Shown: one piece after another, positions 1-12,917 of the stretch
How the letters are laid out: each line of letters opens with the position of its first letter
Position numbering within the stretch: position 1 is the stretch's first letter
Origin: Kineococcus radiotolerans SRS30216 = ATCC BAA-149
Lineage (GTDB): Bacteria; Actinomycetota; Actinomycetes; Actinomycetales; Kineococcaceae
Direction: 5' to 3'
Assembly: GCF_000017305.1 (NCBI RefSeq)
Contig: NC_009660.1
Span: forward strand, 1-12,917
Length of the DNA stretch: 12,917 nt
Notes under the pieces: generated by a model
What the model was told of the DNA's origin: nothing
Seen by the model: only the letters and a program-made list of their open reading frames with translations
The model's database searches: none
Program-made: the position numbers and the translations under genes

Positions 1-428
1 TGATGGCTGCTCACGGGCCCGGTCAGCAGGTCCTCGGCGTGCTCGGCCAGCAGGTGCCGGGCCAGGGTGCCCACCTGGTCGGTGGCGGCCACCACGACGT
101 TGCGGTGTTCCTCGGCGGCGGCGATGCGCCGGCGGGCGGCCAGCAGGTCGTCGGCGGCGTTGGCCGGCACGTCCTCGCCGGCCAACAGCGCCTGAGCGCC
201 GGCGTGCACCAAGGCGGCGGTGTCGATGCCCGGCGTGGTGGTCATGGACGCCAGCTGCGCCATGCCGCGCTGCCAGGCGCGGGTGGCGGTCAGCAGGTCG
301 GTCGGGGCGGCGTCGGCCAGGTGCTCGGCCACCGCCTGCAGCGCGGTGGCGGTGTGGCGGCTCACCTGCTGCGGCACCGCGCGCATCGTCGCGGTGGGGA
401 TCGGGGCGGGGGTGGTCTCGGTGGTCAT
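1..428 (-). CDS. Hypothetical protein, N-terminal 142 codons; the ORF runs off the left edge
   Basis: It is absent from the ORF track because it has no stop in the window. My translation from ATG 428..426 gives MTTETTPAPIPTATMRAVPQQVSRHTATALQAVAEHLADAAPTDLLTATRAWQRGMAQLASM...LLTGPVSSH, with no stop down to position 3. Codons are almost all G/C-ending. GGAG lies at 437..434, 5 nt before the ATG. The start is 14 nt downstream of the stop of the preceding gene. Confidence 0.6.
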   Translation of the reverse strand, partial: MTTETTPAPIPTATMRAVPQQVSRHTATALQAVAEHLADAAPTDLLTATRAWQRGMAQLASMTTTPGIDTAALVHAGAQALLAGEDVPANAADDLLAARRRIAAAEEHRNVVVAATDQVGTLARHLLAEHAEDLLTGPVSSH

Positions 429-442
429 GGTGTCTCCAGGTC

Positions 443-901
443 TCAGAGGACGATGCCGGTGTGATCGCCGCGAGGGCGGGGCTCGGGTTCCCAGGGCTTG
501 GCCGGCGGGCCCTGCGGCGGGGTGGCCAGCTCGCGCAGCTGCGCGGCGATGGCGTCCTGGACGCGCTGCTGCAGCGCCTGCGCGGCCTGGCTGGCGGGGT
601 CGGGCGTGACCGCCTCGGTGACCGCCGCAGCCGCCGAGCGGATGGCGGCCTCGGTCGCCGCCATGGTCGTGGGGTCCACCACCGCGCGGTTGCCCGGGGG
701 CAGGGCGGCCACCATCGCCTCGGCGTGGGCGCGCACGGCGGCGGCACGCTCAGCCCCAGGCCCGTCCTCGCGGCCGGACGCGCTGCGCATCACCGCCGGC
801 GCCGGCGGCATGGGCAGTGGCGACTGGCCCAGGGCCTGGCGCATCGCGTTCACCTTCATGGCCACCAGGTAGGGGTGGTCGGGGGGCAGTTCCTGCGGCA
901 T
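443..901 (-). CDS. Hypothetical protein (152 aa)
   Basis: This is the ORF-track frame 443..976 with the start moved to ATG 901..899. That ATG overlaps the TGA at 903..901 of the upstream gene (TGATG). GGAG at 910..907 lies 5 nt upstream. GC3 is high. I recognise no family. Confidence 0.55.
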   Translation of the reverse strand: MPQELPPDHPYLVAMKVNAMRQALGQSPLPMPPAPAVMRSASGREDGPGAERAAAVRAHAEAMVAALPPGNRAVVDPTTMAATEAAIRSAAAAVTEAVTPDPASQAAQALQQRVQDAIAAQLRELATPPQGPPAKPWEPEPRPRGDHTGIVL

Positions 902-1308
902 CAGTTCTCCAGGTAGCTGCTGAGCGAGATCACCGAGGCGTCGTCCTCGGTGGGGGCTGCGGTCGGCAGGTGCCACCGCAGGCGTTCGCGCGCCAGGGCG
1001 GACAGGCCCAGGCGGTCCTCCAGGGCGCGCAGCTCGGCCATGCGCTTGGCACCGGCTTCATCGCCACGTGCGATGGCGGTGCGCAGCAGGACCACGCGCA
1101 CCGTCACCGCCAGGTCGGCGGCGGGGTCCCACTGGCTGGCCATGGGCGAGGACCACAGCAGCCAGAACTCGGCCACGGCGTCCTTGCCGGCCTCGCGCAC
1201 GACCTCGGGCACCTGCTGGGGCCTGGACCAGTTCGGCGCCGTTCCCAGCACCGGCAGATCGGTCCACCCGGCCGGGCGGCGGTGGCTACGTGCGTCACGG
1301 GGCAACAT
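901..1308 (-). CDS. Putative phage terminase small subunit (TerS)-like protein, 135 aa
   Basis: This is the C-terminal part of the ORF-track frame 901..1953. ATG 1308..1306 is preceded by AGGAG 9 nt upstream. The motifs FWLLWSSPMASQW and AELRALEDRLGLSALARERLRW resemble, from memory and unverified, the W..W.sP.A..W and GL(T/S)P..R.RLR(W) signature of actinophage or P27-type small terminases. An alternative start is GTG 1521..1519, which forms a GTGA overlap with the upstream stop. Confidence 0.5.
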   Translation of the reverse strand: MLPRDARSHRRPAGWTDLPVLGTAPNWSRPQQVPEVVREAGKDAVAEFWLLWSSPMASQWDPAADLAVTVRVVLLRTAIARGDEAGAKRMAELRALEDRLGLSALARERLRWHLPTAAPTEDDASVISLSSYLEN

Positions 1309-1517
1309 GCGTGTGCTCTCCTGCCTGTTCTCGGTGTTCCTGAACCCCTGGGGGACCTCAGCAGCGCGACCGCGCAGAAGCCCACCCCTGCGCTGGCTGC
1401 GCCCCTCGGGACCTCGCCTTGATGCCCCCACCCGCCCCTGTACGCCCGGCTGACGGGCCCGCGGCACCTCGCCGGTGTCCCAGGACCCCGGCGAACCCCG
1501 AGCCCTCAACGAGGCGT

Positions 1518-1787
1518 TCACGCGCGACCCCCGGCCCCGGCCGAGATGGCGAACCGGCGAGGGCGGCGAGCACGGGCAGCCGCAGCGCAGCGCGAGCACA
1601 CTCCCCGGCAGCGGTCGGGGTCGCGCGGGTCGATGCCCAACGCACGCAACGTCGGCGCCGGCACCGGGTGCGCGATGACCGCGACGCACGGTCCCGAGCC
1701 ACAGCGGCAGCAGGTGGGGTCGATGGCGACCACGGCCTGCAGCAGGCCCGGCTCGGGCACCTGCTGGCGACGGCGGTACAGGTTCAC
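1518..1787 (-). CDS. Small Cys-rich protein (89 aa), possible zinc ribbon
   Basis: The GTG start at 1787..1785 overlaps the TGA at 1786..1784 of the primase-helicase gene (GTGA). GC3 is high. The Cys clusters are CCRCGSGPC and CRGVCSRC. Confidence 0.5.
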   Translation of the reverse strand: MNLYRRRQQVPEPGLLQAVVAIDPTCCRCGSGPCVAVIAHPVPAPTLRALGIDPRDPDRCRGVCSRCAAAARARRPRRFAISAGAGGRA

Positions 1788-4459
1788 TGGTCGTCCTCCA
1801 CGGTGTCCTCGGTGGGTGGTTCCCGGTGGTTCCCGGGTGGTTCCCCGGCGGTTCCCGGAACCACCCAGCCAGAGCCCTCCAGGTGGTTCCCCGGTTCCCC
1901 GGTACTAGACGGGGAACCGGGAACCACCGGGGCGGCACCACCCTCGGACCCACCTGCAGGGCTCAGGTGGTTCCCGCCGTCGAACTGGTCACTGCGCGGG
2001 TCCTGCGCCTCGCGGTAGCTACGCACCGAGCGGTGCAGCTGTGAACGGCCGGGGCCGGGGGTCGCCGCCACGTAGCCCTCGGCCACCAGGGTCGCCAACG
2101 CCTGGCTGCGGTACTGGGGCCGCCCCCGCATCACGTCCGTGTCCTTGGTGAGCAGGTTCGTGGTCAAGGGTTCGGGGCTGGCCTCCAGCACCTTGGACAG
2201 TCGTTCCATGTACCCCGTCAGCCGCGACCCGCCACCGCTGTGGCCGACGCCGGGGCCGTCGTCCTCGCCGCTCTCACCACCGACTGCTGGCGGGTCCACC
2301 ACCACGCGGATGGCCTCGCCGTCGCTGGAGTCCACCGAGACCCGCGCGACCTCGGCGGTGCGGTCGCTGGCCCGCCACGGCATCGCCGCGTGCGGGCGCA
2401 CCCCGCCGGGGCGGTCCTTGGCCACGCGCACCACCACCAGCCCGCGCATCCCACGCCCCAGCGGCAGCTTGGGTTCCACGATGTAGGCGGCGTCGCAGGC
2501 GGCGAGCTTGGCCTGGCTGCCGATGGCCCAGCGCCCCCGGGTGTCGCGGTCCTTGGTCACGTGGTCGATCAGCACCACGGCCGCGCCAGTCTCGCGCGCG
2601 ATGCGCCGGGGCACCCCACGCATCCACGCGGTCACGTCGTCGCCGTCCTTGGAACTAGCCCCGGCCAAGCCCAGGAACTCCGTCACCCCGTCGATCACCA
2701 CCATGTCCACCGGCTGCGCCAGCAACTGCTGCCACGCCTGCGCCTCGCTGAGCACCCCGGGGCTGACCTCAGGGCGCACGTAGCGGAACCGTTCACCCGT
2801 CAGCACCTCGGCCGGGGCCCCCATCGCCAGCAGCCGGGCCACGACGTTGCCGGGGGTGTCCTCACCGTCGATGTAGACCGCGCTGCCGCCGGCGGCCAAC
2901 ACCCGGGCGACCTCGGCCTGGGCCAGCAAGCTCTTGCCGCTCTCGGGTTCACCGGCCAGCGAGTGGACCCGCCCGGCGTACAGCAACCCCACCCCGTCGG
3001 TACGCGGCATGAACTCGGCCACCGGCACCACGTGCTCGCCGGCGACGACCGCCGCCAGGTCCACCGGCGCCCACGTAGCGCGTACGGGTTCGCCGCCGTC
3101 CTCTCCGGCGTGCGGGCCGGTGTCCTCCCCGCTGTCCAGGCCGGCGTTCTCGCGGCCACGTTCGGCATCGGCGGTCACGTCGTGGCGGTGCTGCAGGAGT
3201 GCGAGGGGCAGCGCCGCCGCCGGCAGCGGTGAGGATGCGCGGCTGCCCCGGCGCTGCACGTGGCGCTCCTGCAGCACCGCCACGACGTGGGCGGGGATGC
3301 CGAACGTGGCCGCACCGGGCACCCCGTTCAGCGCCGGCTGCAGCTTGTGGCAGAACGCGCTGAGGTCGCCGCCGAACCCGGCGAGGTGGGACAGCAGCCG
3401 GGGCACGTTCAGGCCCACCCCGGTGGGCAGGTCGGCGTTGTCCGACCAGTTCACGAACACGTCGTGCCCGTCGTGCCCGCTGTGACCCGACACCGGGTTG
3501 GACGGGTTGCCCGGCCGGCGCCACTGCAGTTCGCCGGTGGGGCTCTGGGCCACCGCGGTCCAGCCCGCGGCCTCCAGGACCTCGCGCACGCTGAGGTGCG
3601 CGGCGAGGGTCTCCAACAGGTTGGTGCCCCCGCCGGTCTCGTCGGCGAGGAAGCGCCCGGTGTTGGTGGTCGGCGCGCTGCGCGCCGGGGCGCCGACGGA
3701 GAACGCCGACGGCGGCGTCCTGGACACCGACACGGGGTGGCGGGCGTCGAGGTCGGCGCTCCACTGCTGGAGGTGGGCGAGGGTGTAGCGGGGGCCGTCG
3801 GCCAGCAGGATGCGCCGCAGCACCGGGCGCCGCCCGGGCTTGCGGCTCACCGTCCCCGCGGCGCCGAGGACCCGCGCGAGGTCGTGGGGCTTGGGGTCGT
3901 AGACGAACCCCTGGGCGGCGAACCCCCGCGCCACGCCCTCCCCGAGCCGGCGCAGCAGAGCAGCGACCGCGGCGCGGTTGCCGTCGTCGATCAGCTCGGG
4001 GTGCTCCAGCAGGAGGTAGGGGTGCTGGCCGTGGCCGCTGTCGACCAGCAGCGACGGGGGCGGCAGGACCTGGGAGAACAGCTGCGCCAGCTGTTCGCTG
4101 TCGCGCGGCAGCACCAGGCCGTCTTCGCGTTCGGGGGTTTCGTGCGCCAGCAGGGTGTCGCCGTCGAACCACGCCCCGGGCAGCACCGCCGAGGCGGTGT
4201 CACCGCCTCGGCCGCGCTCGGGACGCTGACGCTGCGAGCACACCCGCAACCAGACACTGCTGGCCGCACTACTCCAGCTGGAGGCGATGGCCTCGGCCTG
4301 CTCCGCGGTGTCCAGGTGGACCGTCCACGGCACCGCACGGTCGGGGAAGGCACCCGTCAGCGAGACCAGGAAACCGGGCGGCACCAGGCTCTGGACGTGC
4401 TGCAGGAACTGCGCACCATCGTGTTGCGGCAGGTAGCTGACCGGCTCCACCGCGCTCAC
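1784..4459 (-). CDS. Bifunctional AEP primase-polymerase / RecA-like (RepA/DnaB-type) replicative helicase with a C-terminal winged-helix-like domain (891 aa)
   Basis: This is the ORF-track 992-aa frame with the start moved to GTG 4459..4457, which overlaps the upstream TGA at 4458..4456.
- AEP motifs read by eye: AWFDGD (DxD), LLVDSGHGQHPYLLL (sGxGxH) and VYDPKPHD...GTVSRK.
- Helicase part: Walker A GEPESGKS, Walker B-like DMVVIDGV, and VVLIDHVTKD.
- A wHTH-like segment follows: LTGYMERLSKVLE...ALATLVAEGYV. Confidence 0.9.
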   Translation of the reverse strand: MSAVEPVSYLPQHDGAQFLQHVQSLVPPGFLVSLTGAFPDRAVPWTVHLDTAEQAEAIASSWSSAASSVWLRVCSQRQRPERGRGGDTASAVLPGAWFDGDTLLAHETPEREDGLVLPRDSEQLAQLFSQVLPPPSLLVDSGHGQHPYLLLEHPELIDDGNRAAVAALLRRLGEGVARGFAAQGFVYDPKPHDLARVLGAAGTVSRKPGRRPVLRRILLADGPRYTLAHLQQWSADLDARHPVSVSRTPPSAFSVGAPARSAPTTNTGRFLADETGGGTNLLETLAAHLSVREVLEAAGWTAVAQSPTGELQWRRPGNPSNPVSGHSGHDGHDVFVNWSDNADLPTGVGLNVPRLLSHLAGFGGDLSAFCHKLQPALNGVPGAATFGIPAHVVAVLQERHVQRRGSRASSPLPAAALPLALLQHRHDVTADAERGRENAGLDSGEDTGPHAGEDGGEPVRATWAPVDLAAVVAGEHVVPVAEFMPRTDGVGLLYAGRVHSLAGEPESGKSLLAQAEVARVLAAGGSAVYIDGEDTPGNVVARLLAMGAPAEVLTGERFRYVRPEVSPGVLSEAQAWQQLLAQPVDMVVIDGVTEFLGLAGASSKDGDDVTAWMRGVPRRIARETGAAVVLIDHVTKDRDTRGRWAIGSQAKLAACDAAYIVEPKLPLGRGMRGLVVVRVAKDRPGGVRPHAAMPWRASDRTAEVARVSVDSSDGEAIRVVVDPPAVGGESGEDDGPGVGHSGGGSRLTGYMERLSKVLEASPEPLTTNLLTKDTDVMRGRPQYRSQALATLVAEGYVAATPGPGRSQLHRSVRSYREAQDPRSDQFDGGNHLSPAGGSEGGAAPVVPGSPSSTGEPGNHLEGSGWVVPGTAGEPPGNHREPPTEDTVEDDQ
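1816..1975. repeat. Iteron array (GTGGTTCCC, direct and inverted copies); candidate replication origin inside the 3' end of the primase-helicase gene
   Basis: Copies by position:
- Exact GTGGTTCCC at 1816, 1826, 1837, 1883 and 1967.
- Degenerate direct copies at 1848 (GCGGTTCCC) and 1891 (CCGGTTCCC).
- Inverted GGGAACCAC, exact at 1919..1927.
- Inverted partial copies at 1857..1864 and 1912..1920.
The arms 1883..1900 and 1911..1927 form a 17/18-nt inverted repeat around GGTACTAGAC (1901..1910). Confidence 0.6.
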
Positions 4460-4899
4460 GCCCTGGCCCCCGTCTTGCGCTGCAGGCAGCTGGGGCACAG
4501 CCGGTAGAGCACGGCCAGCGGCCCGTAGAGCACCCGGCCGATGCCGGCGACGGCGGGGGCGTGGCACTGGTCGCACTCGGCCCGGGCGCCCGGCAGGGCC
4601 TGCAGGGCGGTCTCGCATTCGGGGCGGCGGCAGGCGTAGACGTGGGCCCCCCAGGCGCAGGTCGTGAGCATCCCGGGGCCGCGCACGTGGGCGCACCACC
4701 GTTCCTGGGCCTGCCCGCTCGCCACGGCGATGCCGGCGGCGGTCAGGGCGGCGACCATCCACAGCGGCGGGGTCTGCAGTTCCTCGGCGCGGGGGTGCTG
4801 CAGTTCACGCTCGGCCTCGGCGTCGGCCTCGCGGAACAGGGCGTCCAACTGGTCCAGCCAGGCGGTACGCGCGGGGTCGGTCGGGTCGGCGGTCATCAC
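4456..4899 (-). CDS. Cys-rich hypothetical protein (147 aa), possible zinc-binding protein
   Basis: The GTG at 4899..4897 (or ATG 4896..4894) overlaps the TGA at 4898..4896 of the upstream gene. GC3 is very high. There are 8 Cys, including CDQCH and CPSC pairs, and one hydrophobic stretch (PPLWMVAALTAAGIAVASG). Confidence 0.6.
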   Translation of the reverse strand: MMTADPTDPARTAWLDQLDALFREADAEAERELQHPRAEELQTPPLWMVAALTAAGIAVASGQAQERWCAHVRGPGMLTTCAWGAHVYACRRPECETALQALPGARAECDQCHAPAVAGIGRVLYGPLAVLYRLCPSCLQRKTGARA

Positions 4900-5207
4900 G
4901 CCACCGCCCCGGCCGCGGTGACCTCGGCTAGGGCTGCCTCGCAGTCCTGCGCAGCGACCGGGGCCAGTTCCACCAGGGTGATGGAGACGGGGTGGCGCTT
5001 GGCCAGGGCACGGTCGCGGGCACGCTGGGCAGCCGCCAGCGACAGCAGGAGGCGCTGGCGGCGGTGGCCCTCGGGGAACCAGGTCGTCACCAGCAGCGCG
5101 AACCGCGCGGGCGGGGCGAGTGTGGAGACGCTGGCGGTGCTCGCCGGCGCGGTGCTGGTCGCGTTCGCACTGGCGGTGGTCGGCACCGGGCGGCGTCGGC
5201 GGCTCAC
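4896..5207 (-). CDS. Hypothetical protein (103 aa)
   Basis: This is the ORF-track frame 4896..5288 with the start moved to GTG 5207..5205, which overlaps the TGA at 5206..5204 of the HTH gene (GTGA). GC3 is high. I recognise no family. Confidence 0.55.
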   Translation of the reverse strand: MSRRRRPVPTTASANATSTAPASTASVSTLAPPARFALLVTTWFPEGHRRQRLLLSLAAAQRARDRALAKRHPVSITLVELAPVAAQDCEAALAEVTAAGAVA

Positions 5208-5473
5208 GCGGTCATCAGGTCGGTGAGGGGCACGCCGTAGGCCGCGGCCATGCGCGCGGCCACGTCGATGCGCGGCTGGACCTCGCACCGTTCGTAGCGG
5301 CGCAGCATCCCGGCCGACTGGCCGGTGTACTGCGCCACGGTCTCGCGGGACAGCCCCGCGCCCTCGCGGGCCCGGCGGGCGGCGATGCCGTCCCAGCGCA
5401 GGCGCACGGGCCCCTCGGCCGAGGTGGCGGCCTCGGGGCTGGTCTGGACGGACGACGGCACGACGACCTCCAC
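5204..5473 (-). CDS. XRE-family helix-turn-helix transcriptional regulator
   Basis: The sequence LRWDGIAARRAREGAGLSRETVAQYTGQSAGMLRRYERCEVQPRIDVAARMAAAYGVPLTDLM matches the classic XRE/Cro-type HTH pattern. The likely true start is GTG 5461..5459, which has GGAGG 5 nt upstream; the ORF-track start is GTG 5473. Confidence 0.8.
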   Translation of the reverse strand: MEVVVPSSVQTSPEAATSAEGPVRLRWDGIAARRAREGAGLSRETVAQYTGQSAGMLRRYERCEVQPRIDVAARMAAAYGVPLTDLMTA

Positions 5474-5836: not shown

Positions 5837-6964
5837 TCAGGAGCACCGGCGCCGGGCGTTCGCCTCGCGCAGGGCGGCGAGGGCGTGCTGCGCGATGGGG
5901 GGCAACACCGCCGAGGCGGTCTGCCGCTCGGCGGCCTCAGCGGCACGCCGAGCGCGCACCGCCTCCAGGCGCTGCTGCTGCGCCGCATGGCCGGCCAGGG
6001 CCCGCTCCAGCCCCATGGCGTCGATCAGCTGCCCCCACGCCTTCAGGCGCCAACGCAGGACCGCCACAGGGTGCTCGGGGGTCGTCGCGGCGGTGCGCAG
6101 GCTGCCGTCCGGGGCGTGGCCCACGACGTAGACCACCTGGTCCGGGGTCAGCTCCAGCAGGCCGGCCTGGCGCAGCAGGCTGGCCAGCCACGGCGTGGAG
6201 ACCGCCAGCAGCTCGGCCAGCCAGGGCAGGTGCTCGGCCTCGGCCAGGGTCTGCGCCCGGTGGCGCACCTTGGCGGCCAGCAGCAGCTGATCGGTCCTGG
6301 TCTGGCCTCGCGTCGGTGATCCATCCCGGCGCAGCCGCCGCCTGGCCAGGTCGTCGTCCCGGCGTGTCGCTGCACGTTCTGCCACTGCGATCCGGGTATC
6401 GCGCACCCGCGCGTGGGTGATCTTGTTCCCTCTCTCTGTAGAGAGAGGGGGGGTGACATTTCGTAGAATCCTGTTCTGCGGCAACACCTCTGCAGAGGTC
6501 TGCTGGGGTGCGTCAGCGGGGTCCACCGGGATGGTCAGGGCGTAAACGGCGCAGCGGTTGCCGTCCTGGCCGGCGGCCGGGTGGTGCCCGCCCCGGGTGC
6601 TGGGGGTGCTGCCGTGCTCCAGGACGACCAGCAGCCCCAACGCCTCCAGGCGGGCGCGCAGGCGGGCCACGGTGCGCTCGGTCAGGCCTAGCTGGTCAGC
6701 GGCCTTGGTGCGCACCAGGGTCGTGGTGCCGTCGCCGCGTGCGCTCTTGGCCAGCAGCCAGGCGTAGGCCAGCAGGTGCTCGCGCAGGTCGCGGCGCCCG
6801 GCCTCGGCCGTGATGACCTCACGCACGTGGCGCCACCAGGCCGGGGCGTGCCGGCGCCGGCGGAGGCGCCCGGCGGCGTGCGGCGAGGTGGGCAGGTCGT
6901 GGTCGCGGGGACCGTGCTGGACCTGGAGCGAGGGGGCGGCGCTGCGGTGCGCCGTGGCGAGCAC
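5837..6964 (-). CDS. Winged-HTH domain protein (375 aa), possibly a plasmid Rep- or regulator-type protein
   Basis: This is a long, high-GC3 ORF. The N-terminal wHTH-like segment is TKAADQLGLTERTVARLRARLEALGLLVVLEHG. I cannot assign the family by eye. The GTG start at 6964 is uncertain. Confidence 0.7.
   Translation of the reverse strand: MLATAHRSAAPSLQVQHGPRDHDLPTSPHAAGRLRRRRHAPAWWRHVREVITAEAGRRDLREHLLAYAWLLAKSARGDGTTTLVRTKAADQLGLTERTVARLRARLEALGLLVVLEHGSTPSTRGGHHPAAGQDGNRCAVYALTIPVDPADAPQQTSAEVLPQNRILRNVTPPLSTERGNKITHARVRDTRIAVAERAATRRDDDLARRRLRRDGSPTRGQTRTDQLLLAAKVRHRAQTLAEAEHLPWLAELLAVSTPWLASLLRQAGLLELTPDQVVYVVGHAPDGSLRTAATTPEHPVAVLRWRLKAWGQLIDAMGLERALAGHAAQQQRLEAVRARRAAEAAERQTASAVLPPIAQHALAALREANARRRCS
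6428..6499. repeat. Two perfect palindromes in a local low-GC patch inside the 375-aa gene
   Basis: CCCTCTCTCT-GT-AGAGAGAGGG lies at 6428..6449 and ACCTCTGCAGAGGT at 6486..6499. The codons here are atypical for the gene (ATT CTA CGA AAT ... ACA GAG AGA). Confidence 0.7.
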
Positions 6965-7068: not shown

Positions 7069-7294
7069 CGAGGGGGGCGCGTAGTTCTCGCGCCGGCAGG
7101 GGTTCCCTGCTTACTCTGGTCCTGCACCGCTGCTCCCGAGGGGCTACTCGTGAGTTGTGGAAGGGCCCTCGTTGTTGACGCAACGGGGGCTCTTGGCTGT
7201 CCGGGGTCGGACAGGTGCCCTGACCCTGCCCGCGATCACGCTTGGGACCTACGCGACACGCCGCACGTCAGGGCAGGGTGGTCCACCACGACGA

Positions 7295-7332
7295 AGGCCC
7301 TGGCGCCGGCTGCAGTCCGGTCACCAGGGCCT
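7295..7332 (-). terminator. Hairpin AGGCCCTGG-(20 nt)-CCAGGGCCT immediately after the stop of the AT-rich small ORF
   Basis: The 9-bp perfect stem spans 7295..7303 and 7324..7332. On the plus strand it is followed by TCATCTTATTT, and on the minus strand by TTCGTCGT. It sits exactly at the G+C / A+T composition boundary. Confidence 0.45.
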
Positions 7333-7336
7333 CATC

Positions 7337-7477
7337 TTATTTAGCTCTAAAATACTTTATAACTTCCAGAATTTGGGCAATCAATTCTGGTGAAACTGGC
7401 CCAATATGTTCAATCGCTTTAAGGCTCAATTGAAATGCCATATAGATTAGTAGTAGAAATACGCCTTCAATTCCCAT
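7337..7477 (-). CDS. Small hydrophobic peptide (46 aa) encoded in the low-GC island
   Basis: ATG 7477..7475 is preceded by AAAAGGA (7492..7486) 8 nt upstream. The peptide is MGIEGVFLLLIYMAFQLSLKAIEHIGPVSPELIAQILEVIKYFRAK, with one TM-like segment and a charged tail. The ORF-track version (85 aa, TTG at 7594) would include its own putative promoter. Confidence 0.35.
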   Translation of the reverse strand: MGIEGVFLLLIYMAFQLSLKAIEHIGPVSPELIAQILEVIKYFRAK

Positions 7478-7533
7478 AATAGTTATCCTTTTCGTTAGTT
7501 GAATTACATTATTCCTCGGCCAAAGGAGATTAC

Positions 7534-7563
7534 ATCTTAGCACGCCGACCATGATCACGTCAA
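7534..7563 (-). promoter_or_regulatory. Sigma70-like promoter candidate for the small ORF (TTGACG, 18 nt, TAAGAT)
   Basis: On the minus strand the -35 TTGACG lies at 7563..7558 and the -10 TAAGAT at 7539..7534, with an 18-nt spacer. Such hexamers arise easily by chance in AT-rich DNA. Confidence 0.3.
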
Positions 7564-7614
7564 GTCCAAGGAAAGCCAACGTGTTGTGCCACAACGAATC
7601 TCGACGCCTTTAAA

Positions 7615-8187
7615 TCAATTGTTTAAACTGCGATAAAGCGTGGCCCGACTGACCCCCAGCGCCTCGGCGGTCTCGCGGACGCTGTGGGCCTCGCCGGCGA
7701 GCATCGCGCGGGCGGCGGCGATCTTGGCTGGCGTCATCACCGTGGGTCTGCCCCCGCGCCGGCCTCGGGACCGCGCCGCTGCCAGCCCGGCCTCGGTTCG
7801 CTCACGCACTAGGTCGCGCTCGAACTCGGCAAGAGCGCCAAAAAGGTGCAGCACCAGCCGGCCGGTGGCCGTGGTGGTGTCGATGGACTCGGTGAGGCTG
7901 CGGAAGCCCACGCCTCGGGCGGCCAGGCCGTCCACGACCTCCAGCAGGTGCCGCAGCGACCGCCCGAGGCGGTCCAGGCGCCAGACCACCAGGGTGTCCC
8001 CCGGGCCCATCCCTTGCAGCGCGACCTCCAGCTGTGGCCGGCTGGTCAGCGCCCCCGACGCCATGTCGGTCAGCACCTGGGCGCAGCCAGCGGCTACCAG
8101 GGCGTCCTGCTGCAGGGCGGCATCCTGGTCGCCGGTGCTTACCCGGGCGTAGCCGATCAGCCGGCCGGTGGTCGTCAGCGTCGTCAT
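7615..8187 (-). CDS. Small serine recombinase (resolvase/invertase family)
   Basis: The catalytic motif is GYARVSTGDQ. The VVWRLDRLGRSLRHL and GALAEFERDLVRERT motifs are present, with a C-terminal HTH (SVRETAEALGVSRATLYRSL). The start is taken as ATG 8187; an in-frame GTG at 8205 is also possible. Confidence 0.9.
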   Translation of the reverse strand: MTTLTTTGRLIGYARVSTGDQDAALQQDALVAAGCAQVLTDMASGALTSRPQLEVALQGMGPGDTLVVWRLDRLGRSLRHLLEVVDGLAARGVGFRSLTESIDTTTATGRLVLHLFGALAEFERDLVRERTEAGLAAARSRGRRGGRPTVMTPAKIAAARAMLAGEAHSVRETAEALGVSRATLYRSLNN

Positions 8188-8434
8188 GAGCGCGGACCCT
8201 GCCACCTGTCTCAGACGCCGTGGCCGTCAACGCAGCGTTGCGGACACGGGTTGTGCGACGGCGTGGCGCGGTGGCCGGGCGCGTCGCACCAGTTGTCTCG
8301 CAACCGAGCGGTTCTGAGACGCCCGGAAGGGCCCATGTGACTGCCACAGCCGGGGCACCCATTCACCGTGCAGCTGGCGGTCGGCAGCAGGTCGGCCCCA
8401 GCACGACACCGGATACCTACCGAGAGGCACGACC

Positions 8435-9103: not shown

Positions 9104-9484
9104 TCAGCCGTCGTGGCGCTCTAGGTACTCGCTCAGCGCGGCGGCGGTCAGGGCCTGCACGGTGGTGTCGTTCTCGGCCGCCCACCGCTTGACCCGCCGG
9201 CGCAGCGTGGGGTCCATGCGCACGCTGAACATGGGCAACGCCGCCGCCGGCTGACCTGCCGGCGCAGCCGGGCTGGTGACGGGCTCGGCCACCGACTCGG
9301 CAGCCGGCGCGGACTCAGGTGCAGGCGCGGCGTCAACGGCATCCGAGGGCGCGGGGTCGAACCCGGGCAGGAACGGGTCCTGCAGGTCATTACCGGCCAG
9401 CGCTGCTGCCGGCGCCGGCGGTGCGACGGGGTGCACAGCGGCCGGGGCCTTGCGCAGCGCGGTCTTGGGGGCGGGCTTGGCCAT
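9104..9484 (-). CDS. Ribbon-helix-helix (CopG/ParG-like) protein; likely centromere-binding partner of ParA
   Basis: ATG 9484..9482 overlaps the parA TGA at 9486..9484. The N-terminal half is disordered and Ala/Pro-rich. The C-terminal RHH is FSVRMDPTLRRRVKRWAAENDTTVQALTAAALSEYLERH. Confidence 0.7.
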   Translation of the reverse strand: MAKPAPKTALRKAPAAVHPVAPPAPAAALAGNDLQDPFLPGFDPAPSDAVDAAPAPESAPAAESVAEPVTSPAAPAGQPAAALPMFSVRMDPTLRRRVKRWAAENDTTVQALTAAALSEYLERHDG

Positions 9485-10275
9485 CAGGACACCTCCACGG
9501 TGCTCGGGGTGCTCAGGGTCTGCAGGGCCAGGACGCGCTCGGCCAGGGCGTCGTAGACCTCGGCCACGGGCTTGCCGTCCGCGCCGTAGTCAGCCACCGA
9601 GGCGGCAGCGCCCATCGCCGCCGCCACCACCGCGCGGGCGGGCACGTAGGGCTCCCACACGGCCGCGCCGTAGACCTCGGCCACCTCGGCCACGCGCAGC
9701 GCCGACTCGGTGGTGCGGTTCTGGTGGTTGACGACGATGCCGGCCAGCTGCAGCTTGCGGTTGTAGTGCTCGGCCACCACGTCCCGGGTGCGCAGGACGT
9801 TCTCCACCCCGCGCAGGCTCGCCGCCGAGGGCTCGGTGACGACCACCACGTGGGTGGCGGCCACGAACCCCAAGACGACCAGCCGGCCAATACTCGGAGG
9901 GCAGTCGATCAGCACTACGTCGTAGCCGCTGAGCCCGTCCAGGGCCTTGGCCAGGCGGAACTCGCTGCCGGGGGACAGGTCGGTCTCGCGCTCGGCCAGG
10001 TCCAGCGTGGAGCCGATTACGTCGATGCCCGCACCCCAGCCGGCGTGCTGGATGGCCTCGGCGGCGATGCCTCGGGTGTCGGCGTACACCGCGTCGTTGA
10101 CGTTGCGCACGTCGTCCAGCGGGTCCAGGCCGAGCCACTGCGTCAGGTCGGCCTGCGGATCCAGGTCGATGCAGAGCACCCGCAGGCCCCGGCGGTCCAG
10201 GGCGGCGGCGATGCCGACGACGGTGGAGGTCTTGCCCACCCCGCCCTTCTGGTTAGTGAACGCGACGGTCAGCAT
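9484..10275 (-). CDS. parA: ParA/Soj-family partition ATPase
   Basis: The deviant Walker A is MLTVAFTNQKGGVGKTS. The LCIDLDPQADLT and VVLIDCPPS motifs are present. The protein is 263 aa. Confidence 0.95.
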   Translation of the reverse strand: MLTVAFTNQKGGVGKTSTVVGIAAALDRRGLRVLCIDLDPQADLTQWLGLDPLDDVRNVNDAVYADTRGIAAEAIQHAGWGAGIDVIGSTLDLAERETDLSPGSEFRLAKALDGLSGYDVVLIDCPPSIGRLVVLGFVAATHVVVVTEPSAASLRGVENVLRTRDVVAEHYNRKLQLAGIVVNHQNRTTESALRVAEVAEVYGAAVWEPYVPARAVVAAAMGAAASVADYGADGKPVAEVYDALAERVLALQTLSTPSTVEVS

Positions 10276-10317
10276 GTCTACATACCTACATGTCTACATG
10301 TTGGCATGCAAGGACAT
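10268..10317. repeat. Tandem 8-bp iterons phased on CAT, overlapping the parA start; candidate parC/operator
   Basis: The units run consecutively from 10268: GTCAGCAT, GTCTACAT, ACCTACAT, GTCTACAT, GTTGGCAT, then GCAAGGACAT. Confidence 0.5.
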
Positions 10318-10816: not shown

Positions 10817-11137
10817 ATGATGAAGGACCCACCCGGCCGCGCCGATCATCCAGGGGTGAGCACGACCACCCCCGCCGGCGCGACCAGCCAACGCGCCCGA
10901 TAGGCCCGCACGGCGGTCACGGCGGTCACGGCGGTCACGGCGGTCACGGCGGTCACGGCGTCGCGGCACGGTCAGCCGTGGACCGCGACCGAGGACGTCG
11001 AACTGGCCGCCTGCGTCAATGACGACGACCTGGAGGCGTTTGCGTGGCGGTGGGGACGACGGTTCCTGTCCGTGAAGCAGCGGCGTCGCCGTCCCCGCAC
11101 GGGGACGACGCGAACCGGCACGGGCTGGGTCCGATGA
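10817..11137 (+). pseudogene. Myb/SANT-like (W-T-x-x-E-D) small DNA-binding ORF interrupted by an in-frame TAG at 10901..10903
   Basis: My translation is MMKDPPGRADHPGVSTTTPAGATSQRAR-TAG-ARTAVTAVTAVTAVTAVTASRHGQPWTATEDVELAACVNDDDLEAFAWRWGRRFLSVKQRRRRPRTGTTRTGTGWVR. No ATG, GTG or TTG lies between the TAG and the conserved W. The stop TGA 11135..11137 overlaps the next ATG (11134). Confidence 0.4.
10909..10960. repeat. 9-bp tandem repeat CACGGCGGT, 5 full copies plus 7 nt
   Basis: Read directly. The units start at 10909, 10918, 10927, 10936 and 10945, with a partial unit at 10954. In the three plus-strand frames it encodes (TAV)5, (HGG)5 or similar. Confidence 0.95.
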
Positions 11138-12445: not shown

Positions 12446-12917
12446 TCAGGCCGCCGGGGCGCCGTCCTGCGCGTCCAGGGCGTCCAGCCAGGCGGTGGCG
12501 ACCTGCTGCGGCGTGGGCGTCCACGACCCGTGCGCCACCAGCGTCAGCAACTGCTGGACGGGCCCGCCCTGCCAGGGGCTGGCCGGTTCCGGGGTGCCCG
12601 GGGGCACCAGGGGGCGCCGCCAGGCCGGCCACGCGGTGGCGAACCCGGGGCACCACAGCACCCGGGCCCGGGCCAGCGCCGTCATCGTCGCGGCGGTGCC
12701 CGGCACCACCTCCCGGTCGCGCCCGGCGGTCAGGTAGGCGAACAGGGCCAGGTGCACCCGCCGCACCGTCTCCAGCTCGGCGTGCAGGGCGTGCAGGCGG
12801 GCCACCGCCGCGCGGGCCCGGTCGCCGGCCGCGCCGTTGGTGCGCAGCAGATCGTCGGCGGTCAGCGCCTGGCCGTGCTCACCGACGACGGCGCGCACCT
12901 GGACCATCAGCGCGTCG
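12446..12917 (-). CDS. Hypothetical protein, C-terminal part; the frame is open to the right edge
   Basis: This is the ORF-track frame 12446..12907. The frame stays open upstream (GAC GCG CTG before ATG 12907), with base 12917 as the third base of a codon. GC3 is very high. It probably continues the 1..428 ORF across a circular junction. Confidence 0.6.
   Translation of the reverse strand, partial: DALMVQVRAVVGEHGQALTADDLLRTNGAAGDRARAAVARLHALHAELETVRRVHLALFAYLTAGRDREVVPGTAATMTALARARVLWCPGFATAWPAWRRPLVPPGTPEPASPWQGGPVQQLLTLVAHGSWTPTPQQVATAWLDALDAQDGAPAA

Follow-up and report, generated by a model that had tools for sequence, protein, structure and literature searches.

A phage-type small-terminase gene and a candidate packaging-recognition region on plasmid pKRAD02 of Kineococcus radiotolerans: a possible plasmid-resident phage satellite

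What lies around the small-terminase gene?

The DNA considered here (the window, 12,917 bp) is the entire circular plasmid pKRAD02 (CP000752) of Kineococcus radiotolerans SRS30216, and our interest centres on three adjoining minus-strand features: a degenerate HNH-like open reading frame (ORF) of 89 amino acids (1518..1787), a non-coding gap of 209 nt (1309..1517) and a gene of the Terminase_7 family for a small terminase subunit, TerS, of 135 amino acids (Krad_4700, 901..1308). The gap lies between the HNH-like ORF and TerS, which is where related phages have their cohesive-end site (cos). The TerS gene was recognised by Pfam, by a family hidden Markov model (HMM) and by a gene caller; it begins with an ATG at 1308, preceded by a GGAGAG ribosome-binding site at a 7-nt spacing, and an independent gene caller working on Logan contigs yields the identical 135-residue product. 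Third-position GC content gives a coding signal from 901 to about 1300 and becomes ambiguous farther upstream, while homology to the family stops at the 135 residues and leaves the 71 codons farther upstream unmatched. A longer version of the gene (901..1521), offered in a preliminary description of this DNA that was made from the sequence alone, was consequently rejected, since homology, ribosome-binding site and independent gene call all favour 901..1308. The ORF is intact, rich in GC at third positions and overlaps the start codon of its downstream neighbour, and comparison with its chromosomal homologue P0002 gives a ratio of non-synonymous to synonymous substitution (dN/dS) of 0.30 at a dS of 1.18, so that the gene is under purifying selection.

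Is it a true phage small terminase?

The answer from the profile evidence is yes, and we regard membership of a true phage small-terminase family as confirmed. The Pfam profile PF25673 (Terminase_7) matches the protein at 32.7 bits (cut-off 27; E 8.5e-8) over profile positions 23-134 of 139, and precomputed annotation assigns it (as P0001) to the same family. An HMM of 36 family members, built without both Kineococcus proteins, scores it at 92 bits (E 3e-28), a value that carries some selection bias because the members were chosen as matches to the pKRAD02 protein. Searching 1.84 billion representative proteins with phmmer returned 174 matches at E<1e-3, mostly of about 90-180 residues; Terminase_7 is matched by 38 of 38 aligned relatives, and all 16 invariant columns of a 49-sequence alignment are retained in the plasmid protein. 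It also shows the family signature, that is, a length of about 130-150 residues, a W..W.SP.A core and a C-terminal E.R.LEDR.GL...RL.W block. The preliminary description had quoted two motifs, FWLLWSSPMASQW and AELRALEDRLGLSALARERLRW, and had taken them for the mark of a P27-type small terminase. Both are indeed present in the minus-strand translation that ends at 901, and the resemblance to small terminases proved to be well beyond chance in the Pfam and family searches alike; the assignment to P27 (Terminase_4) fell, since that profile does not match the protein at E<=10 and matches merely one of the 38 relatives, at 8.5e-4. NCBIfam left the protein unmatched, PADLOC matched neither it nor its neighbours, and an AlphaFold2 (AF2) model of the monomer is all-helical, with a pLDDT of 80.

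What the family does is best read from its phages. Among IMG/VR contigs with enough sequence, 77 of 78 have a homologue of the large terminase subunit, TerL, directly downstream of TerS (a script flagged 74, to which we added L073, L091 and L095, in which the TerL frame overlaps the TerS start), and the same holds for 16 of 22 genome loci, two of the 16 having a split or fragmentary TerL only. It is this synteny that assigns the TerS function to Terminase_7. About 28 of 80 viral contigs start within some 320 nt of the TerS frame. Because tblastn with the pKRAD02 protein found no match in GenBank phages or PLSDB plasmids, a typical family member served as the query to reach cultured phages: in those of Arthrobacter, Streptomyces and Tsukamurella, TerS is gene 1 and TerL follows, the distance from the left physical end to the start of TerS being 55-188 nt in four cultured phages. 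Phages with a TerS of this family have genomes of 37-56 kb, and the sole PLSDB plasmid that the typical member matched is phiCmus45274, a phage-plasmid of 42.8 kb with TerL, portal and capsid genes.

Readers who search the databases will meet a confusing label. PHROG_226, which matches the pKRAD02 protein at E 8e-12, is called 'minor tail protein', as are the corresponding genes in the RefSeq records NC_030916, NC_070828, NC_070833, NC_070834 and NC_070835. The GenBank originals of these say terminase small subunit for three Arthrobacter phages and hypothetical protein for Dubu and TPA4, and in many phages of Arthrobacter, Gordonia and Streptomyces the GenBank name of the gene is 'terminase small subunit'. 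Given these names, and the place of the gene as gene 1 followed by TerL where checked, we take the tail label to be an annotation error.

What precedes the gene, and what is in the gap?

The HNH-like ORF, which the preliminary description had missed, sits between a primase-helicase gene and TerS, and its GTG start and the stop of the primase-helicase gene overlap (GTGA). An HNH HMM from which it had been left out still picks it up, at E 1e-5 in a search of all loci and at 1e-9 in a single-sequence check, the alignment covering profile positions 55-115 of 121 only, which is the C-terminal half. BLASTP aligns it at E 4e-8 with a 125-residue protein at the same position in a chromosomal island, L001, of another K. 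radiotolerans strain, and that protein is a clear HNH endonuclease (PHROG_589, 1.4e-10). The plasmid ORF retains CxxC pairs and one histidine, and an intact HNH motif is not among what it keeps.

In the family at large, an HNH homologue lies on the same strand within 1.2 kb upstream of TerS in 38 of the 59 loci that have enough upstream DNA, and a close HNH is commonly separated from TerS by about 110-220 nt. The genome of Arthrobacter phage Persistence opens with TerS, which starts 55 nt from the left end, and closes with HNH, which ends 49 nt from the right end; because these physical ends fall between HNH and TerS, we place cos of the Terminase_7 family in the gap between them. By comparison, pKRAD02 reproduces the phage layout of HNH, cos-position gap and TerS, except that TerL does not follow.

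The 209-nt gap is therefore of obvious interest as a candidate packaging-recognition region. It holds, at 1425..1433 on the minus strand, the motif GGGTGGGGG, then CATCAAGG, as the plasmid's sole copy on either strand. A motif survey of the regions upstream of TerS in loci L003-L104, and of the genome ends of MW712719, KR053196, MK937595 and GQ379227, gives this a context: GGGTRGGGG is present in the DNA upstream of TerS in 15 of 76 loci where 0.6 would be expected (about 25-fold enriched), forms the 5' arm of a G/C hairpin that follows HNH in the family, and in phages Dubu and Persistence is found 25-49 nt short of the right physical end. A second motif, TGTACGGGTTC, is found upstream of TerS in 23-25 of the 76 loci, again with 0.6 expected, and cultured phages have a GGGTTC(A/C)AA-like box 17-37 nt in from the left end. 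These two conserved cos-region motifs (TGTACGGGTTC and the GGGTRGGGG arm), each enriched about 25-40 times, flank the physical ends of cultured phages. The gap of L001 holds GGGTGGGGGGTTCAAAGG.

In addition, the gap contains three GAGGTSCC repeats at 1352, 1408 and 1463 (1352..1470, minus strand), spaced by 55-56 nt and the only copies in the plasmid, which are candidate TerS-binding repeats; an equally spaced triplet of some kind arises in 14% of random gaps, so their statistical support is weak. The predicted DNA fold of the gap has a z of -1.6, and an IMG/VR search with the gap repeats and with a composite of the G-motif gave 35 and 100 matches, none adjoining the family's TerS, TerL or HNH.

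What is missing from the plasmid, and where else does the cassette occur?

As the preliminary description had said, TerS is not followed by TerL: a TerL HMM finds nothing in the six-frame translation of the circularised plasmid, and the gene calls put next a protein of 152 amino acids (443..901, minus strand, its ATG overlapping the TerS stop; function unassigned) and then one of 299. The usual family synteny, with TerS immediately upstream of TerL, is thus absent, a matter of gene order that is no criterion of protein-family membership. Nor do Pfam, PHROG and PADLOC reveal any portal, capsid, protease or tail gene in pKRAD02.

The 299-residue ORF spans the origin of the record, its N-terminal part at 1..428 and its C-terminal part at 12446..12917 (minus strand); the frame is unbroken across the end-to-start junction, and differently permuted Logan assemblies call it as one gene. 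Because it reads through the record origin we take pKRAD02 to be a closed circle, as it was recorded for this strain (PMC2587704).

Close relatives of the plasmid's TerS are scarce. In a collection of 5.8 billion clusters the only one is P0002, at 66% identity, and it is encoded in L001, which has no TerL. That island runs in the order tyrosine integrase, helix-turn-helix (HTH) protein, HTH_17 protein, three small ORFs, an 891-residue Prim-Pol, HNH, gap and TerS, after which come, on the opposite strand, two HNH_2-domain proteins and an AIPR protein (L001 10443-15092); these look like defence cargo of the sort seen in other satellites, by Pfam names only. The plasmid and the island share no proteins besides TerS and, weakly, HNH, and their replication proteins have no similarity detectable by tblastn at E<=1e-3. 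Since so little else is shared, the HNH/gap/TerS cassette appears to have moved between backbones.

Other bearers of this TerS family that lack TerL are more distant. They comprise an island in Corynebacterium that carries a serine recombinase and a replication initiator besides a strong HNH and TerS; an IMG/VR contig of 10,062 bp (L069) with an HTH_36 protein, an HK97-type capsid, a portal and a Terminase_7 TerS, without TerL in the 1.6 kb downstream; and a stretch of a Solirubrobacteraceae metagenome-assembled genome (L018, 9824-17608) with two tandem Terminase_7-like ORFs and no TerL, lying between an AAA_25 helicase plus JAB protein and a tape-measure-like PhageMin_Tail plus SLT protein of 2042 residues. 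The IMG/VR contig, in which a large serine recombinase is predicted as read from sequence, looks like a satellite of the phiRv1/EPIP type in a virus collection, and the gene content of the Solirubrobacteraceae stretch recalls the TerS and tape-measure content reported for EPIPs. As the TerS proteins of all three are merely 31-37% identical to that of pKRAD02, use of a Terminase_7 TerS without TerL probably arose several times.

Could pKRAD02 be a phage satellite?

We think that the most economical reading, and the best we can offer, is that pKRAD02 is a phage satellite resident as a plasmid (a 'satellite-plasmid'), whose TerS would direct the terminase of a helper phage to the plasmid, and we hold this proposal to be evenly balanced between belief and doubt. 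The preliminary description had raised the idea of a satellite kept as a plasmid; this is partly supported, and two findings added here, namely the HNH remnant with its 209-nt gap and the 66%-identical homologue in an island without TerL, strengthen it by comparison of sequences.

The mechanism that we have in mind is a simple one. pKRAD02 would be replicated by its own primase-helicase and iteron origin and maintained by ParA and ribbon-helix-helix (RHH) partition proteins and a resolvase, and its packaging-recognition cassette (HNH remnant, gap and TerS) would be a copy taken from an actinophage's cos region. Once a suitable helper siphovirus was multiplying in the cell, TerS from the plasmid would bind a site in the gap and recruit the helper's TerL, probably together with the helper's own HNH. 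The terminase, with its cut site presumably in the gap, would then cut and package concatemers of the plasmid, three or four 12.9-kb units filling a head made for genomes of 37-56 kb, and in this manner an otherwise non-transmissible plasmid would be transduced. Packaging of multimers would be compatible with the genome size of the phages, by analogy with P4 and cosmid multimers, and the 152- and 299-residue proteins might play some part in the process.

A more specific proposal, which we advance tentatively and trust rather less, is that pKRAD02 represents a minimal satellite of tailed phages without capsid genes, a partitioned plasmid in a high-GC actinobacterium whose multimers the terminase of a helper would package. 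Its sole hijacking equipment would be its own cos-type TerS, the HNH remnant and a private recognition site, and the same cassette would move between plasmid and integrative backbones in Kineococcus.

There is, of course, a good deal that weighs on the other side. No helper phage is known for pKRAD02, and the case for packaging is built from comparative sequence. The HNH-like ORF is truncated, its N-terminal zinc knuckle is absent and other residues stand in place of the D of DH and the final H/N, while both Kineococcus TerS proteins are missing the N-terminal GPxPKP..RRRN motif of the family. Neither a sequence nor a fold match to the plasmid's TerS was found in the PDB, and a fold search of BFVD gave E values of 0.06-1 (best 0.06), which are not significant even though the top matches are mostly TerS. 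In the gap, a position-weight-matrix scan for the TGTACGGGTTC box, the commonest of the family, found it absent from pKRAD02 as well as from L001 and L012, and conservation between the gaps of pKRAD02 and L001 is weak (local alignment z about 3, below the best of 300 shuffles).

The remaining genes offer the satellite proposal little help, since no gene for capsid size or for interference is recognisable on the plasmid. The 152-residue protein is below curated cut-offs or without a match in Pfam, PHROG, NCBIfam and PADLOC, has no detected homologues and no relatives in viral contigs, and its single-sequence AF2 model is of such low confidence (pLDDT 66, pTM 0.25) that it was too poor for a fold search. 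The 299-residue protein has no detected homologues and no matches in Pfam, PHROG or PADLOC; the public record origin splits its ORF, which is why the full-length protein is absent from protein databases, and searches with it came back empty.

What else could explain these features?

Several of the points just listed are what one would expect if pKRAD02 were carrying a decaying relic, in which the plasmid, or an ancestor like a phage-inducible chromosomal island (PICI), captured part of a phage cos region and TerS no longer serves packaging. The truncated HNH-like ORF with its missing motif residues, the loss of the N-terminal motif from TerS, the absence of the canonical cos box from the gap and the restriction of close relatives to one chromosomal copy all speak for this. 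We nevertheless consider it unlikely, given that TerS retains an intact ORF, a good ribosome-binding site and every invariant residue of the family, that a dN/dS of 0.30 has been kept up over a divergence of dS about 1.2, and that the same cassette stands in the same position in a second element whose replication genes lack detectable similarity. Less probable still is that TerS acts against phages, as a decoy that sequesters or misdirects the TerL of an infecting phage, with plasmid transfer at most a side effect. Interference with helper packaging is known among satellites (PMC10690885), a prophage system directed at the terminase complex has been reported (bioRxiv 10.1101/2025.02.27.640495), and the chromosomal homologue adjoins AIPR and HNH_2-domain genes that are defence-like by Pfam name; PADLOC, however, recognised neither TerS nor its neighbours, and interference alone would leave the upstream HNH remnant and the cos-position gap unexplained. 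Such a role could in any case hold together with that of a satellite.

It is also conceivable, at a probability that we would rate as low, that the TerS-like protein has been exapted as the plasmid's own DNA-binding factor, regulating its origin or operon and having no link with particles. Its location inside a replication operon, beside an iteron array, would fit, as would the odd contexts in which some family members are found (for example, the tandem copies between an AAA_25 helicase and a tape-measure-like protein in L018). This has to be set against the link of the gene, across the family, with TerL and the cos end, the retention beside it of an HNH remnant, spaced as in phages, which a purely plasmid role does not explain, and the fact that a primase-helicase and a candidate 375-residue initiator (sub-threshold) already supply replication functions. 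Least credible of all is that pKRAD02 is a fragment or miniature of a phage-plasmid, that is, of a complete temperate phage kept as a plasmid; ParA partition beside a phage packaging gene brings this to mind, and phiCmus45274, with the same TerS family, is indeed a phage-plasmid, but pKRAD02 is a closed circle of 12.9 kb (PMC2587704) without TerL, portal, capsid or tail genes, whereas phiCmus45274 has 42.8 kb and all of these genes, and the idea is already contradicted by gene content. Taken against the satellite proposal, the relic, the decoy and the exapted factor explain less well why an intact, selected TerS would be kept with an HNH remnant at phage-like spacing in two elements.

How does pKRAD02 compare with known satellites?

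The closest likeness in gene order is to PICIs and the Staphylococcus aureus pathogenicity islands (SaPIs), which are small and have a regulator, small ORFs and a primase-replicase with an adjacent iteron origin, then TerS with small unknown genes, and no TerL. The preliminary description had drawn this parallel, and the order in pKRAD02 is indeed an XRE-type HTH gene, two small ORFs, a primase-helicase with eight iterons, TerS and the unknowns. Of the PICI core set used by SatelliteFinder (PMC10085698), the plasmid has the regulator, the primase-replicase with origin and its own TerS without TerL, and it lacks the integrase and the chromosomal integration. L001, rather than pKRAD02, has in addition an integrase and the HTH_17 excisionase-like gene. 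The plasmid differs from PICIs and SaPIs in having no integrase, in not being chromosomal and in carrying ParA/RHH partition genes and a resolvase (a combination to which the preliminary description had also pointed, and which the Pfam scan bears out), as well as in lacking any recognisable capsid-remodelling or Ppi-like gene; moreover, the TerS of SaPIs is pac-type, whereas that of pKRAD02 comes from a cos-type, HNH-associated actinophage family.

Plasmid life among satellites has precedents. The PISP and cf-PISP elements of Vibrio crassostreae, which have been read as satellites persisting as plasmids (PMC13230959), are circular, extrachromosomal and 11-16 kb long, with parA, a replication gene and a small terminase; an integrase went undetected in TG93, and TG54 is without one but has a distinct tyrosine recombinase (PMC13230959). 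pKRAD02 shares the small, circular, extrachromosomal state, the partition and replication genes and the want of an integrase. Of hijacking genes in the PISP manner it has TerS and an HNH remnant, which is a difference in itself, whereas the Vibrio elements encode capsid and protease genes (in cf-PISP a full head module) that pKRAD02 does not have, and they belong to another host phylum and another TerS family. P4 in its plasmid state is alike in its size of about 12 kb and its primase-helicase replicon, and it is packaged by the helper's terminase via cos, as pKRAD02 would be (background partly after PMC10690885). Unlike pKRAD02, P4 lacks a TerS of its own, using the cos of P2, and it carries an integrase as well as Sid, Psu and Delta, to which we saw no homology in pKRAD02. 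According to a recent review, a single plasmid satellite, that of an inovirus, is proven so far, and more are expected in a group that is still largely unknown (PMC12282955).

Satellites are by no means foreign to actinobacteria: Mycobacterium and Rhodococcus are predicted to harbour PICI-type elements (PMC10085698), Mycolicibacterium has yielded EPIPs (PMC12822802), and Streptomyces was the source of MiniFlayer and MulchRoom (PMC10690885). Elements of the phiRv1/phiRv2 type, EPIPs and MiniFlayer/MulchRoom resemble pKRAD02 in being small, in having high-GC hosts and in encoding TerS (PMC12822802, PMC10085698). They differ from it in carrying capsid, portal, scaffold or tape-measure genes and, except for MiniFlayer, an integrase; MiniFlayer and MulchRoom also have TerL, and none of these actinobacterial satellites is described as a partitioned plasmid. 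The HNH-dependent cos modules of HK97-like phages (Kala et al. 2014, cited in PMC10085698) likewise have HNH adjoining the terminase genes across cos, a layout that Persistence confirms for Terminase_7, and they differ in that the HNH of pKRAD02 is truncated and motif-poor and its TerL partner is missing. As far as the sequences allow us to judge, pKRAD02 stands apart from all of these: it lives as a plasmid in an actinobacterium, pairs a cos-type TerS with a remnant of HNH and has no capsid gene. The earlier surmise that such a combination is no established class in these bacteria is borne out in so far as our literature searches found no plasmid-borne satellite of this kind described in Actinobacteria, and needs tempering in so far as P4, the inovirus satellite and PISP/cf-PISP went before it.

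Why might this matter?

Many plasmids have no known route between cells, and pKRAD02 is a concrete and culturable test case, with a public strain, a size of 12.9 kb and a predicted region of 209 nt on which to focus. If our reading is right, pKRAD02 would be the first plasmid satellite with a TerS to be reported from outside Vibrio and would furnish a concrete route of transfer for plasmids now classed as non-transmissible. In addition, because the HNH/gap/TerS cassette is common to a plasmid and an integrative island without detectable similarity in their replication genes, the comparison suggests that packaging-recognition cassettes are exchangeable modules among mobile elements. The by-products are also useful in their own right: two conserved cos-region DNA motifs for a large family of actinophage TerS proteins, and a recurrent mis-annotation of that family as a minor tail protein.

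What else does the plasmid carry?

The backbone genes described next lie on the minus strand. The operon that includes TerS is headed by an XRE-type HTH protein of 85 residues (HTH_3 / HTH_31) with ORFs of 103 and 146 residues (together 4456..5461), the two ORFs being without family matches in Pfam, PHROG and PADLOC. There follows the primase-helicase of 891 residues (1784..4459), with a primase-polymerase-like N-terminal region and a C-terminal AAA_25 helicase (Pfam E 3e-16); it matches DNA polymerase/primase families in PHROG and has a single remote match in viral contigs. Within the 3' end of this ORF lies an array of eight iterons, GTGGTTCCC, in both orientations (1814..1975), which is the presumed replication origin. 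At its core, GGTTCCC(C)GG, the iteron is similar to the core of a variant (ACGGGTTCCCAGG or ACGGGTTCCGGG) of the cos-region box found in the Terminase_7 phages, and the array might bind the replicase, TerS or both.

Partition is represented by ParA (263 residues; Pfam AAA_31 / CbiA / ParA) and an RHH protein of 126 residues, whose Antitox_RHH match is slightly under the curated cut-off (together 9104..10275), and there is a small serine recombinase of the resolvase type (7615..8205; 196 residues; Pfam Resolvase E 5e-43, plus HTH_7). A Pfam scan found no tyrosine or large serine integrase among the proteins of pKRAD02, and Pfam, PHROG and PADLOC scans found no relaxase or FtsK-like transfer gene. 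Scans for Rfam families, tRNAs, promoters and terminators were empty, and in a megablast of the whole plasmid the sole match was a resolvase fragment in an Iamia plasmid, with none in phages.

A few further observations deserve a mention. A winged-HTH protein of 375 residues (5837-6964) weakly matches phrog_391 (0.003) and phrog_270 (0.02), which are phage replication-initiator families; on these sub-threshold matches it is a candidate initiator, and pKRAD02 may have two replication systems. HTH-type initiator-like proteins (phrog_270 and HTH_36 matches) also occur near TerS in L012 and L069. Between the winged-HTH gene and the resolvase gene lies an island of low GC (7250-7600; about 0.3-0.55, the plasmid as a whole having 0.72), which contains an 85-residue low-GC ORF on the minus strand (7337-7594) without family matches and could be a vegetative origin, a res site or a foreign insert.

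Three repeats are also worth recording. Across the ParA start codon and the DNA just upstream, 3.6 copies of CATGTCTA (10273-10301) are candidate parS or operator sequences, and at 10909-10960, in a region with no convincing ORF, a perfect tandem 9-mer, CACGGCGGT, runs for 5.8 copies and could be a centromere-like or Rep-binding array. Finally, a perfect inverted repeat of 20 nt, GCGACCCCCGGCCCCGGCCG, has its arms at 1524-1543 and 2046-2065, 502 nt apart and both in coding sequence, so placed that they bracket the iteron array and the HNH-like ORF; its estimated chance expectation in that region of 851 nt is about 2e-5, and origin architecture or a recombination substrate are the possibilities that we would consider for it.

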